Assembly: GCA_965204945.1 (NCBI GenBank)
Contig: OZ242022.1
Span: 3,554,333-3,618,332 of the forward strand
Direction of reading: 5' to 3'
From: Limisphaerales bacterium
GTDB taxonomy: Bacteria > Verrucomicrobiota > Verrucomicrobiia > Limisphaerales > AAA164-E04
DNA: 64,000 nt
Shown here in pieces: positions 55,551 to 59,776 of the stretch (the stretch's first letter is position 1; the number at the start of each line of letters is the position of its first letter). The translations under genes were made by a program, and so were the position numbers. Below the pieces are notes generated by a model. The model saw only the letters and a program-made list of their open reading frames with translations. It made no database searches and was not told where the DNA came from.

Positions 55551-57116
55551 TTAGCGCAACTGCACTTGGAACTGCGCAGGATCCTTGCCGCACGCTCGAA
55601 TAAAGCGACGGCTTCTAAAAACTATGTCTTTCGATCCCAAGCGCGTGTTCAAATTTTTACCCCAAAAGTAGTTCTTAAGTTTCCAAGGAATATCATTTGG
55701 CAATAGAAGTTTTTTCTCAAACAACCATTCAACGACTAATTCGTACATTTCCTTCCAAGTCTGAGAAGGAACGCTTTTTACACCATTCGGAAATCCCAAG
55801 AATATAGGATGGCGGCTGCCGGTTATAGAAACGGTCTTACCTAATTGGGAAAGATTATACCAATGTCTACAATCTTGTCCACGATCTTCCCGATCCAACG
55901 CCTCGTCCCGCTTATCTTTCAAATCCTCGAACTTTGGCTTGAAGGGCTCAATGATCTCGAGGATTTTGTCCCGAATCGGCGAGGTTGGTATTAAAAGGCG
56001 GTCGTAGTTGTTAGCAAGTTTCTTCAACAATGTCTTGGTGATCTTTTTGTTGGCGGGGATGATGATTTCGGCAGTTTCAGAATTGCAAACCTCCAGCGGA
56101 ATTTTCTCCCCCAACAGAATGCCGCTCAACTCATCGATCAACTGATTCAGGAGTTCTTTCCTTTTGCCGGCTTGTAAGTCATCTCCCTCCGTGCTGGTCG
56201 TTTCCGCAAGGGAAGGATCCTCTCGGGCATCGCCGAGTTTTAATCCGAAGCTCTGCAATTTCTCCTTGATTTCGTTGAGAGATTTTTTGCCGAAGTTGCG
56301 ATATTTTAACATATTGGCTTCGGACCTTGCTGCCAACTCTCCCACCGTGGTAATGTTGGCGTTATTTAAGCAATTGACGACTCGATTGCTGAATCCAATT
56401 TCGTTTACGCTCTTTTTACTGAGTTCCAACAGTCGCGCGCTCTCATCGTCCCTCTGTTTCCCCTCGCCTGAAACCGGCACAGAACCCGCCGTGTTCAATA
56501 GACTTTCCGCGCGCCGCAATAGGTACATCGCCTTAATTAGCGTGCTGATGAAAATCGCCTGCTTATTTACCGGCCGACTTTTCAGTTCCTTCAACTCACT
56601 CCGCCACTTGTCCAGTTCTGCCTGCAGATTGTCCACCATCCTTACACGCGCATGACTTTCTTGCACCCAACCTTGCGGTCGTTCCGTTTTCGGCAAAGTG
56701 TCAATATATTTGTCGAATAACGCACCCAATGCGCCGTCATCTTTCAATTCCGCCTCACGCTCTTCGATAAGCGAGCGCAGTTCACTGCGCCGGGCATCAT
56801 CGGGGCCGACGATAATCTCCCGCTCCGCCTTCAGCAGCTCTTTGAACGGAGCGAGCAGCCGGACGTCCCAGTCGTCATTAATCTCAAAAGCACTGGCGGG
56901 AATCATTCCGTCCTCCCTATCATCGCAGATGTTGACTGACCAGTTTAGTTTGTTCAGCGGCGGCGCTACCGGCAAATGCGCTTGTATGTGAGCACCAATA
57001 TGGCACAGGTCGCAAACTGGCGGGTGTTTATCGCCGCAATGGTGTTCGTATTCCCAGCGCCGCCATGCGCGCCACTTGCCGCAGCGTTTGCAGTCTTTGC
57101 CGAAGGAATAGGTCAC
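55551..57116 (-). CDS. Protein with Cys-rich N-terminus, coiled-coil region and RNA polymerase alpha C-terminal-domain-like HhH module; probably the C-terminal continuation of the upstream helicase
   Basis: [52 protein letters not shown] closely mirrors RpoA alpha-CTD (SVRSANCLK...IGDLV...LLK..N.GKKSL.EIK..L...GL.LG). The N-terminus has CKRCG and CDLCH. The GTG start sits 3 nt from a G4 run where the helicase frame could join. Confidence 0.65.
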   Translation of the reverse strand: [521 protein letters not shown]

Positions 57117-58311
57117 ATCCCCGGCAATGATGACTGGCGGCGGGCGACGCCGTCAAGCACTTTTCGCACCAGACCACCGGCGCATCTCCGGCCGTCGCTT
57201 GGCCGCGCGGTTGCAGCGACCATTCCCGGTTCTCCTCCGGCAGTCCGTGCTTTCCTGAGTTGTCCGCCAAGTCCAGAATGATGTAGTTGCCGCCATCCGG
57301 TTTGGGGCGCAGTCCCCGTCCCTCATTTGCAAGTAGATCGCCAGACTCATCGTAGGGCGGGTGATAAGAACGCAAGAGGCGTCTGGCAAATCAAAGCCTT
57401 CGGTGGCGATAAGAACGTTGACCAGCACTTGGACGCGGCCTTCCTTGAAACCCGTCGATGGCAGCTTTCCGTTCCGCGGGCGGAGTCTCGCTGAGGAGAA
57501 CCGCTGCTTTGACACCGGCATCGTTGAACACGGAAGTCAGGTTGCGGGCGTGTTTCTTCGAGACTGCGTAGGCGATAGTTTGCCGGTTGCCTGCATGTTC
57601 CTGCCAAAACTGCAATGCGCCGGCGGTCATAATGTTCGGGGAGTTGGCCTGCTCAATCCCGCTTTCGGTGTAATCGCCAAGCGTGCGGTTAACGGCCCCG
57701 CCAATGATGCGCTGCTTCGGCGGCGGCATCAGTGTTTGCGCTGGGCACAGATAGCCTTGCGCTTGCAGTTCCGCAACTTGCGGCCCGCAGAGCAGTTCGT
57801 CAAAGAGATGGTCAAATCCTTCTTTTTCCGACAACCGCCAGGGCGTAGCCGTCATTCCAACTACGGGGCCGGGCCACTGGTGGATTGCCCGTTCCCAGCC
57901 TTTGGCGGCTGCGTGGTGGGATTCGTCAACAATCATCAGATCAGTAGGGCGGTATTGGTTCCAAACTTCCCGTCGGGCGGTTTGGAGGCTGACCTTCTGC
58001 GCCATGAGAATGACTACTCCGCCGGCCATTGCCGGCGCGCCATCGCCGGGTGTCCATCTCACATTGGTAATGACAGAAACGCCGGCTTTGGTGAGCATTT
58101 CCCGTGTCTGCTTGGCTAGTTCCTTGCGATGGGTGAGCCAGACGGCTTTGCGCCCGCTGGTCAGCCAATCTACCAGCAGATCGCCGGCGATAATGGTTTT
58201 GCCGCCTCCGGTGGGCAGTTGCATCATCAAGCGGACCTTAGGATTGGATACCAGCACATCTTGCACACGGTCCAGCAATTCCTGCTGATAGCGACGCAGT
58301 TCAATAGCCAT
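57028..58311 (-). pseudogene. RadD-like SF2 (DEAH/ResIII-type) helicase, reading frame broken at least twice
   Basis: Motif I QLPTGGGKT, motif II IVDESHH and motif III TATPWRL lie in ORF 57391-58311. Motifs V-VI (VNVLIATEGFDLPD, ITRPTMSLAIYLQM | RGRGLR) are spread over ORFs 57153-57521 and 57028-57375, followed by a Zn-ribbon WCEKC...CRGC. The breaks are at short homopolymers (57448-57453 and 57320-57322). Confidence 0.75.
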
Positions 58312-58368
58312 AATGGAGACCCCTTTTGTTTGGTCGGCTTTCGCTCAATAACATGTCGAGAATCTTTA

Positions 58369-59046
58369 TTATTCTTGCTTGTTAAATAATTTGCTTAGTC
58401 TTTCTCGCACTGCGTCAATTTTCATAAGTTCTCGCAAAAAGTAGGCCAAGTTCCTCTCTTGATCTTTGCCTCTGCTTTTTACAATCTCATCATAATCCAG
58501 TTCCAATAAGTTGCAAAATTCCCGCCCAGTCAGAACTTCGCCAATATTGATCTTGTTCTTCAGTCCCTCTACAATTGCCTTTTTGCTATCCTGATTAAAG
58601 CAACAAATATATGGCTGGACAGTATAGTGGATACGATGCGCATTCTGCTGTGTAAAGGCGTGCAGCATTCTCCTTTCAGCAGACGCTTTTTTGATATCGA
58701 ACTGATGGCCGTCTTTGAGTTCAATAACGTAGCAAGATTGTTTATCATCTCGCCTTTTGAATATTAGAAAGTCAGGCTCCGCTTCAGAAGAATCCAAGGT
58801 ATTGCACCTTTTGATTTGCAGTTTTGTCGCCATAAACACGCCTTCCTGCATAATCTCTATTTCCAAAAAAGCATCCAAATCTTCGATTTGCCGAAGCCTA
58901 TTCTGAATCATTCGTTCCAGTTCGCTGCCGGACGCTATCACCGTTCCTTGCACCTTGCTCATCAGCGCGCCAAGGGCTTTTATTCCGAACAGCCTTTCGT
59001 ATGCTCCTGAACTGCCTGTTGTTTTTCTGTCTTCCAGTTTTGCCAT
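58369..59046 (-). CDS. PD-(D/E)xK restriction endonuclease candidate
   Basis: 225-aa AT-rich ORF with EPDFLIF...x15...YVIELKDG (PD...ExK nuclease core), 7 nt downstream of the methyltransferase gene. Confidence 0.6.
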   Translation of the reverse strand: MAKLEDRKTTGSSGAYERLFGIKALGALMSKVQGTVIASGSELERMIQNRLRQIEDLDAFLEIEIMQEGVFMATKLQIKRCNTLDSSEAEPDFLIFKRRDDKQSCYVIELKDGHQFDIKKASAERRMLHAFTQQNAHRIHYTVQPYICCFNQDSKKAIVEGLKNKINIGEVLTGREFCNLLELDYDEIVKSRGKDQERNLAYFLRELMKIDAVRERLSKLFNKQE

Positions 59047-59053
59047 AGGGCAA

Positions 59054-59776
59054 TTACCCGTTTATATCGCATCCTAAAAAGTTTCTGCGCTCGTTTATTG
59101 CGGCCGTCATTACGGAAAACGAACCTGCAGCTGGATCCACAATAATGTCGCCTTCATTGCTGACGGCGGCGATGAGTTTGCTTTGCAGGTTTATGGGTTT
59201 TTGGTGGGCGTGTTTTCCATTGTTAACAATCTTCTCTTCCCAAATGTCGCGGATGTTGTGGATTTTCCAAACGCCCTTTGCCTTTTTGGGAAGTTTCTGC
59301 AAAACAACTAGATATTCTCCCACTCTTCTGGTGCGATAGCCCATTCCCATTTTTACTTTGTTCCAATTGATTAAGTCTACTATGTCCAACGCCGTTCCGT
59401 CCATCCATGCGCTAAAGCCTTGGCACAAGTGGAACTTGTCCATCCATAGGAATAAATGCCCGGAGTGGATCAGAATTCTGTTTATTTCTTGGATAAACTC
59501 CGCAATGACTTTTTCACTCATTTGCGGCAGTTCCGTTCTTTTTCGGCCTCTTTTTTCGCCTTCGTTGCCGTAACTCATCTTGTCTAATATTCCGCGATAT
59601 TGAGGATCGAAGAATACGACTGGAAAAGATGTTTCCGGCAATTGGGATAAAAACTCCCTGCCTTCCATCTTTAATCGAGTATTTGTTTTTAGATGCTTCG
59701 GCAATGCAATGTTTGGGGTTGTGACATCTCGGACGAGAGAGAATACATTGGCGGTTTTTTGAGTGGATGCATTCAT
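59054..59776 (-). CDS. Site-specific DNA methyltransferase, beta-class (N6-adenine or N4-cytosine)
   Basis: A motif IV variant VVFFDPQY precedes the AdoMet motif I IIVDPAAGSFSVMTAA...FLGCDIN. This IV-then-I order is typical of the N6_N4_MTase family. HLFLWMD and GMGYRTR blocks lie in between. Confidence 0.8.
   Translation of the reverse strand: MNASTQKTANVFSLVRDVTTPNIALPKHLKTNTRLKMEGREFLSQLPETSFPVVFFDPQYRGILDKMSYGNEGEKRGRKRTELPQMSEKVIAEFIQEINRILIHSGHLFLWMDKFHLCQGFSAWMDGTALDIVDLINWNKVKMGMGYRTRRVGEYLVVLQKLPKKAKGVWKIHNIRDIWEEKIVNNGKHAHQKPINLQSKLIAAVSNEGDIIVDPAAGSFSVMTAAINERRNFLGCDING

Follow-up and report, generated by a model that had tools for sequence, protein, structure and literature searches.

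Escherichia coli RadD (YejH) is a superfamily 2 (SF2) DNA-repair helicase of known structure (PDB 6jde). SF2 translocases combined with swappable nucleic-acid-reader modules are also found among type IV, or modification-dependent, restriction proteins of the helicase type, such as those captured by the PADLOC models mREase_IV (PDLC03659) and PbeA, and the domains DUF4357 and Mrr_N occur fused to the type IV enzymes McrB and GmrSD (PMC11090510, PMC4619093). RNA polymerase (RNAP) carries modules of another kind. BEAN domains are insertional and polyphyletic, and those of the RNAP beta subunit carry a TGD/E motif; a published survey describes the BEAN insertions as ancient, having "tapered off after early evolution" (PMC11515920). 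The Tudor C-terminal domain (CTD) of PcrA/UvrD docks on a TGE beta-hairpin in the SI1 insert of RpoB, and also on UvrB (PMC8318588). Here we describe a RadD-like helicase gene and an adjacent restriction-modification (RM) pair in a 64,000-nucleotide (nt) stretch of a Limisphaerales bacterium genome (GenBank GCA_965204945.1, contig OZ242022.1, positions 3,554,333 to 3,618,332), hereafter the window. All coordinates are window positions, and all genes of the island lie on the minus strand. The locus is probably a small decaying defence islet, in which an intact type II RM pair accompanies a disrupted RadD-like helicase gene with a recent, lineage-restricted capture of rpoA and rpoB segments.

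The helicase gene (55551..58311) carries three frameshifts and one insertion of ~560 nt and, when repaired in silico, encodes 919 amino acids (aa). Pfam domains in the repaired protein are ResIII (aa 3-157), Helicase_C (238-336) and RNA_pol_A_CTD (627-686). The ATPase core (57117..58311), recognized by Pfam and by PDB 6jde, comprises ResIII and Helicase_C with motifs I-VI and a first CxxC...CxxC zinc (Zn) module. An earlier note on this DNA had called the helicase RadD-like on the basis of these motifs and the Zn module, and this assignment was upheld. The closest solved structure was RadD (phmmer E value 5e-28, aa 2-367 against RadD 5-374), and the best NCBIfam model was also RadD (NF053632, an equivalog), although the intact orthologue P0008 scored 117.1 bits against a cut-off of 720. 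The cysteines of the Zn module that follows RecA2, as judged from sequence (C382/C385/C396/C399), were invariant in 14 aligned family members. In aa sequence, the repaired helicase shared 82% identity with P0001 and 76% with P0008, two intact orthologues of 745-748 aa. The ATPase core is thus collinear with that of E. coli RadD through motifs I-VI and into the Cys-rich module; unlike RadD, members of the family also have a second Zn module, a coiled coil of ~120 aa, a linker and C termini that can be exchanged, and they sit in defence-island-like clusters instead of housekeeping contexts.

We compared the repaired protein and its DNA with intact orthologues to locate the extra material. Over its final ~105 aa (WYNLSQLG...PAQFQVQLR), the query realigned with the orthologue C termini; the additional sequence is therefore internal (~55885-56458), in the linker that joins the coiled coil to the C-terminal domain, and not a C-terminal fusion as had been proposed. 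At the DNA level, homology to the relatives L001 and L002 stops at 56516 and restarts at ~55800/55760. The insertion consists of two DNA copies, which we call parts A and B. Part A (56154..56458) reproduces the terminal ~305 nt of rpoA; it covers the end of the linker, the alpha-CTD and the C-terminal tail and stops with the last sense codon (...LQAG). Over 305 nt it is 87.9% identical to a relative's rpoA (L011:2973-3273), which lies in an S13-S11-S4-rpoA-L17 operon. The alpha-CTD helix-hairpin-helix (HhH) region (56253..56432; fusion aa 627-686) matched PF03118 with 77.1 bits against a cut-off of 23.8 (E value 8.3e-22). An AlphaFold 2 (AF2) model of the alpha-CTD, built from a 70-sequence alignment, had predicted local distance difference test (pLDDT) values of 81-90, and its top Foldseek matches were the alpha-CTDs of E. 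coli and Caulobacter (3n4m_C, 9zum and 1lb2_E; root mean square deviation 0.6-0.9 Å over 64-65 aa). The similarity claimed from the letters alone is thus supported by both profile and fold. An AF2 model of the whole 521-aa open reading frame (ORF) that contains the insert, built from a 20-sequence alignment, had a mean pLDDT of 57 with a poor alpha-CTD region and was excluded from the fold search.

Part A is a paralogue of the rpoA 3' end at the DNA level, and it retains the alpha-CTD fold. The equivalents of the DNA-contact residues R265, N268, C269, G296, K298 and S299 are invariant in the copy. It differs from RpoA in being detached from the alpha N-terminal domain (PF01193/PF01000), which is absent, and in lying in the linker of a helicase gene, outside the ribosomal-protein operon. 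Furthermore, five positions that are near-invariant across the aligned RpoAs, around the "261 determinant" and helix 1 (stretch IELSVRAANCL in RpoA), are replaced, and the copy is under relaxed constraint.

The segment that follows the alpha-CTD had been read as an anonymous coiled coil; instead, it was copied from within rpoB. Part B (55885..56165) encodes a helix, a small domain with an ETAE (TGE-type) hairpin and a second helix. It is 90.0% identical over 281 nt to L094:4258-4538, within an rpoB located between rplL and rpoC, and in an exhaustive HMMER search of 1.8 billion representatives it was 84% identical in aa sequence to the RpoB fragment P0246. In RpoB the segment lies between GTYGIVMEV and a second flanking stretch, a position that we take to correspond to SI2 (beta-i9) of the E. 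coli protein. Part B alone had no match in PDB, Pfam or NCBIfam. We considered P0123, a defence-island gene of 353 aa, whose 3' end could have been the donor, but the match to rpoB extends 18 nt further at the 3' side and is closer (90.0% versus 88.2% identity). A mutated rpoA stop codon (TAA to AAA) was likewise rejected, as the bases concerned are better explained by the rpoB alignment and the rpoA piece ends at the last sense codon. The junction between the two parts falls in purine-rich sequence common to both donors, and the right junction at a CGGGAC-type microhomology. Together, these alignments indicate that both pieces of the insert derive from RNA polymerase genes.

To place the lesions in the helicase gene, we combined three-frame translation with DNA alignment to three relatives (L001, L002 and L003). 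A single helicase frame is broken at about 57450, 57322 and 57110, leaving ORFs of 306 aa (57391-58311) and 521 aa (55551-57116) together with a pair of short, overlapping ORFs that lie in other frames (57153-57521 and 57028-57375). Frameshift 1 (57448..57450) is one extra T (GGGTTTC versus GGGTTC in all three relatives), and frameshift 2 (57322..57323) is a missing T in motif VI (ATGA-GGG versus ATGATGGG, which reads QMMGRGLR); both are specific to the window. Frameshift 3 (57109..57112), located between the two Zn modules, is a loss of 5 nt compared with L001/L002, and it is shared with L003. Programmed frameshifting at this third site was rejected, since a slippery or re-pairing sequence was not evident (GAC CTA TTC). 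The frame had been said to run on from the helicase into the 521-aa region; however, the three frameshifts lie between the pieces, and a single 919-aa frame is obtained only after in silico repair. The intact 919-aa fusion is not encoded in the window, and helicase function has presumably been lost.

We then asked how widely the insert is distributed. A homologue search over 5.8 billion protein clusters returned more than 1,500 relatives, of which the best 120 were examined, and a scan of species representatives (one genome per species) returned 210 relatives, from which the best 80 loci were taken with 10 kb on either side. Across the 5.8 billion clusters and the 1.8 billion representatives, the only other carrier of the insert was P0121, on the 7-kb metagenome contig L003, which is 92-95% identical to the window. 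Part A is present there, and part B is reduced by a 222-nt in-frame deletion that includes the hairpin. In the 80 loci, which include syntenic Limisphaerales with an intact helicase, neither the alpha-CTD copy nor part B occurred (0 of 80 for each), and PF03118 was absent from the top 120 homologues. A scan of metagenome contigs with the 21-nt rpoA/rpoB junction gave a single match, L093, an unrelated AT-rich chance match. These results do not bear out a conserved helicase-alpha-CTD fusion, the more so as its sole other carrier is frameshifted too. The earlier note had itself named separate helicase and alpha-CTD genes as the finding that would speak against the fusion, and this is largely what we observed, in that orthologues carry the helicase without an alpha-CTD. 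Its proposal that the helicase is a defence component fared better in part: the family does live in defence-island contexts, whereas a conserved sensor is unsupported.

We propose the following course of events. In the ancestor of the window allele and L003, two segments of RNA polymerase genes belonging to the host lineage itself, one from the rpoA 3' end and one from inside rpoB, would have been copied in frame into the helicase linker, by template switching or illegitimate recombination at purine-rich microhomology, as we infer from the junctions. In the same lineage, a 5-nt deletion would have split the gene between its two Zn modules, and the window genome would later have acquired two more frameshifts in helicase motifs V-VI. 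A helicase-alpha-CTD polypeptide could then not be made here, and at most a 521-aa C-terminal remnant would be expressed. Other decay at the same locus in sister genomes (L012 and L005/L006) also speaks for this account, and we regard the alpha-CTD as a recent lineage-restricted capture, not a conserved, designed sensor.

Two alternatives would attribute the unusual structure to the data. If the frameshifts were sequencing errors, the genome would encode an intact 919-aa helicase-alpha-CTD-beta-module fusion. The lesions are three small indels whose repair restores a frame collinear with the orthologues, and frameshift 1 falls in a short homopolymer (TT to TTT). However, frameshift 2 lies outside any homopolymer, and frameshift 3 recurs unchanged in L003, which was assembled independently from another sample with another assembler; it is thus a genuine lesion that both insert-bearing alleles inherited from their ancestor. 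Moreover, in ~15 kb flanking the helicase, all indels relative to L012 that are not multiples of 3 are intergenic and the coding indels are multiples of 3, so the assembly appears accurate; we consider sequencing error very improbable. The rpoA and rpoB pieces could instead be an assembly chimera of real rpoA and rpoB reads, as conserved housekeeping genes can be a focus of mis-assembly in metagenomes. Against this, the copies are just 88-90% identical to the rpoA and rpoB of close relatives and have their own substitutions at sites conserved in RpoA, the junctions are in frame, and the same junctions occur in L003; a chimera is hardly credible.

A biological alternative deserves closer attention, namely that the gene is split but working, and that its C-terminal polypeptide uses the copied RNAP surfaces as an integrated decoy or adaptor. 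It could serve as bait for phage factors directed against the alpha-CTD or the beta insert, or dock on AT-rich DNA through the alpha-CTD or on UvrD/PcrA-type Tudor domains through the beta hairpin; in the window genome, only this C-terminal protein would survive. Several observations weigh against simple decay and favor such a role. The 521-aa ORF (55551..57116), which holds the second Zn module, the coiled coil, the alpha-CTD copy, the rpoB-derived module and the family C-terminal domain, is free of stops downstream of the shared frameshift (P ~0.005 if neutral, ~110 substitutions). Its indels relative to L003 are all in frame (3 of 3, one of them the 222-nt deletion), its pooled ratio of nonsynonymous to synonymous substitution rates (dN/dS) against L003 is ~0.53 (p=0.002), and a start codon in the new frame stands exactly at frameshift 3 (GTG at 57116-57114 in the window, ATG in L003). 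The ORF is thus under moderate purifying selection (dN/dS ~0.5). That both captured pieces come from RNAP genes is hard to ascribe to chance, and the DNA-contact residues of the alpha-CTD were kept. The TGE-hairpin beta inserts are a docking site of the PcrA/UvrD C-terminal domain (PMC8318588), and the C terminus of the helicase family is a natural module-swap site whose domains are also fused to McrB homologues (PMC11090510).

The rpoB module was also taken up elsewhere. P0123/P0124, with a weak HSDR_N_2 N terminus, ends in an overlapping rpoB piece with other boundaries (21 nt further 5', 18 nt shorter 3'); the copy in P0123 (L004:8001-9062) is 87% identical to rpoB at the nt level, and it looks like a capture separate from the one in the helicase. 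This gene adjoins a type IIG-like methyltransferase (MTase), a DuOB/DUF488 trio (the candidate defence system PDC-M45), a ligase and SocA. Beyond the weak N-terminal match, P0123 had no match in PDB, Pfam or NCBIfam. Modules of the rpoB type (~95 aa, with a T(G/A)E hairpin) occur at the N or C terminus of unrelated proteins of other taxa: the Ser/Thr kinase P0339 (with a large middle region), the Sel1/TPR proteins P0343 and P0283, the Zn-finger protein P0349, P0337 and P0263. In P0263 a divergent HhH precedes the module, in the same order as in the helicase insert. Some of these carriers outside RNAP could be assembly chimeras. The open ORF, the RNAP origin of both pieces and the repeated capture mean that the remnant or its modules may be functional. 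Conversely, only two alleles are known in all, and one of them, L003, has lost 222 nt of the rpoB piece, the hairpin included. Evolution of the alpha-CTD copy after its capture has been close to neutral (dN/dS 0.65-0.95 against rpoA; 0.45-0.49 between the two alleles, where the synonymous excess is not significant for part A alone, p=0.07). The strict helicase-interaction motif is not matched by the window hairpin (CNSETAEII), and the helicase core is dead in the window. On balance, we find a working split gene unlikely, and retain the decaying islet with a captured RNAP insert as the better account.

The hairpin itself was compared with the published modules. Homology of part B to the lineage-specific beta insert (BBM2/"BEAN"; SI2 = beta-i9) is indicated by its sequence, with ETAE in the window and ETGE in relatives in the place of the TGD/E motif. 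Unlike the published BEAN insertions, the 281-nt copy is recent (90% nt identity) and resides in genes that do not encode RNAP (the helicase and P0123/P0124). It resembles the "helicase interaction motif" bound by PcrA/UvrD, a solvent-exposed TGE-triad hairpin in a beta lineage-specific insert (PMC8318588). That motif, however, lies in SI1, while part B is at the SI2 position, and neither the window ORF nor any of 12 related proteins matched the strict pattern [VIL]-D-x-x-T-G-E-[VIL]-[VILT]. A relaxed hairpin pattern alone was matched (CNSETAEII in the window, VNAETGEII in relatives). Docking of UvrD/PcrA on the part B hairpin is a lead offered by this similarity, not a result.

Other observations concern RNAP modules in related organisms. 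P0124 shares GHLL.EKIIWEV with L094-type rpoB, and P0123 and window 55885-56165 share a stretch with P0244-type rpoB (P0246 was also compared). This co-variation of the captured copies with rpoB variants suggests gene conversion from rpoB or repeated capture. P0244, the RpoB of a close relative, has 1977 aa, with several alpha-CTD-like HhH repeats inserted at two places; judged from this protein, the RNA polymerase of the clade is heavily decorated. Tandem arrays of alpha-CTD-like HhH were also seen in proteins other than RpoA (P0245, P0249, P0271, P0291, P0326 and others), with up to 11 stretches in 1031 aa, and the alpha-CTD region is also hit by the PADLOC profile PglW. This locus is therefore not alone in having an alpha-CTD outside RpoA. 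A broader reading is that defence-island proteins and signalling proteins repeatedly acquire copies of host RNAP surface modules, namely the alpha-CTD and the SI2-position beta insert, which serve as decoys or adaptors and are kept similar to the polymerase by gene conversion, so that the locus would be a snapshot of acquisition. The copies would then bait RNAP-targeting phage factors or recruit RNAP partners such as UvrD/PcrA. Taken as a whole, with this role included, we hold the broader reading to be quite doubtful.

The helicase belongs to a family with a recurrent architecture. The best 120 homologues are mostly ~700-790 aa long and 55-82% identical, and most cover ~65% of the query. Their layout comprises the ATPase core, two Zn modules, the coiled coil, a flexible and variable linker rich in Pro, Asp and Glu, and an exchangeable C-terminal module. 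The window copy has the C-terminal domain that we call type A (55554..55862), which by alignment carries a ~16-aa deletion relative to the orthologues and had no match in PDB, Pfam or NCBIfam. Among the best 80 loci, type A was found in 18 (by tblastn), DUF4357 in 16 and Mrr_N in 8. Members of the family resemble defence-island translocases whose reader module can be swapped. PADLOC v2 returned partial matches to the helicase domain only (mREase_IV, E value 7e-25; PbeA; DpdF), and no system-specific PADLOC v2 model matched the helicase over its full length. The family thus resembles mREase_IV and PbeA in its translocase and swappable modules but differs from them in that the helicase domain alone matches and no nuclease domain was found in the helicase protein.

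Family members occur mainly in metagenome-assembled genomes (MAGs) of Dehalococcoidia, Latescibacterota and Caldilineaceae. A recurring cluster was seen in MAGs of Dehalococcoidia, Chloroflexota and others (L007:4806-15041 and L010:3244-14841; also L014, L021, L022, L028, L050 and L079). It contains two to three LLM flavin oxidoreductase genes, the helicase, a toxin-antitoxin pair, a 544-aa AMP-binding enzyme/AMP-ligase, a 250-270-aa protein, DuOB, DUF488 and DUF488-N3a, the last three of which match the PADLOC candidate system PDC-M45A/B/C. The literature on DUF488/DuOB/LLM clusters does not name the helicase family, and the larger helicase/LLM/DuOB/DUF488 cluster appears to be undescribed.

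An MTase and a restriction endonuclease (REase) stood next to the helicase in 2 of the 80 loci, both from Limisphaerales, and a degraded copy was present in L005/L006. Co-occurrence of the helicase with such a pair, a check suggested in the earlier note, was thus found in these two loci and in none of the others; the linkage is local, seen only in Limisphaerales. In the syntenic Limisphaerales genome L002 (same locus as L082, OZ251460.1), which is 88% identical over 14 kb (window 50000-64000), the order is CPSase, LamG, MTase, REase, helicase, symporter, nuo, and the helicase is intact (745 aa) and free of the insert. Codons 1-283 of the window helicase (58311-57463) are near-identical to L001 (synonymous divergence dS 0.025), while the C-terminal half has a dS of 0.68; the window allele appears on these values to be a recombinant mosaic. 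L001 and L003 lack the RM pair, and there the helicase is bracketed by a ~85-125-bp imperfect direct repeat (83-85% identity) made of the symporter 3' end and intergenic sequence (L003:2483-2609 and 5354-5468; L001:12-103 and 2595-2686), which resembles the scar of a cassette insertion or duplication. The window has one copy only (55436-55521), and a search within it for direct or inverted repeats flanking the island found none beyond chance.

The RM pair lies upstream of the helicase. The MTase (59054..59776, 240 aa) is an intact beta-class N6/N4 DNA methyltransferase, with motif IV (DPQY) ahead of motif I (DPAAGSFS), and matched Pfam PF01555 (7.5e-17) and PADLOC MTase_II PDLC03271 (1.2e-77). 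The REase (58369..59046, 225 aa) is an intact PD-(D/E)xK type II enzyme (EPDF...IELK) that matched PADLOC REase_II PDLC03487 (1e-47) and had no match in PDB, Pfam or NCBIfam. Its nearest annotated relatives, at 39% aa identity, directly follow an MTase on Campylobacter conjugative plasmids. With an intact MTase bearing motifs IV and I adjacent to an intact nuclease bearing the PD-(D/E)xK signature, the two genes make up, as predicted from their motifs, a type II pair, in agreement with the earlier note. Gene order, families and the tight 7-nt spacing are those of known type II pairs with a beta-class MTase (PADLOC MTase_II/REase_II and the Campylobacter plasmids), from which the REase differs in its low identity. 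The pair would methylate self DNA and cleave unmethylated DNA in the ordinary way. The MTase is kept at the same place in L002, L005 and L012. In L012 the REase is deleted (L012:9057-9994) and the helicase is split (616 + 143 aa), and in L005/L006 the REase is degraded (L005:5774-7000; L006:42-1013). The MTase remains intact in these sister genomes, which shows orphan methyltransferases forming at the locus.

The ORF listing agrees with four packed, co-oriented ORFs or ORF fragments between a Kelch/SSF-type symporter gene (52827-55517, plus strand), convergent with the island, and a LamG gene (59931-63305, minus strand). The island had been described as lower in GC content than its flanks. This is true of the RM genes (0.42-0.44) and of the 3' 1.5 kb of the helicase gene (0.42-0.47), but not of the helicase core (57117-58311), whose 0.59 exceeds the 0.55-0.57 of the flanks. 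The low GC content of the insert follows from that of its rpoA and rpoB donors, which stand at 0.45-0.46. Another low-GC stretch, at 0.45-0.48 in 2-kb bins, spans window ~14000-18000 and would presumably be the first AT-rich island, since the title of the earlier note calls the present one the second. Window 8365-8504 is 78% identical over 145 nt to L003:2078-2222, so that the gene upstream of the L003 helicase matches a distant part of the window; this similarity suggests a paralogous small-protein family.

Being lineage-restricted and frameshifted, the helicase-alpha-CTD allele does not warrant an entry of its own as a new defence family. It does offer a clean DNA-level case of early domain accretion, in which the donors, an intermediate allele and the unmodified orthologue can all be compared. 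A module derived from rpoB was captured at least twice in this genus, and such recent captures outside RNAP suggest that the process is ongoing. Copies of RNAP surface modules may act as decoys or adaptors, an idea that can be tested.

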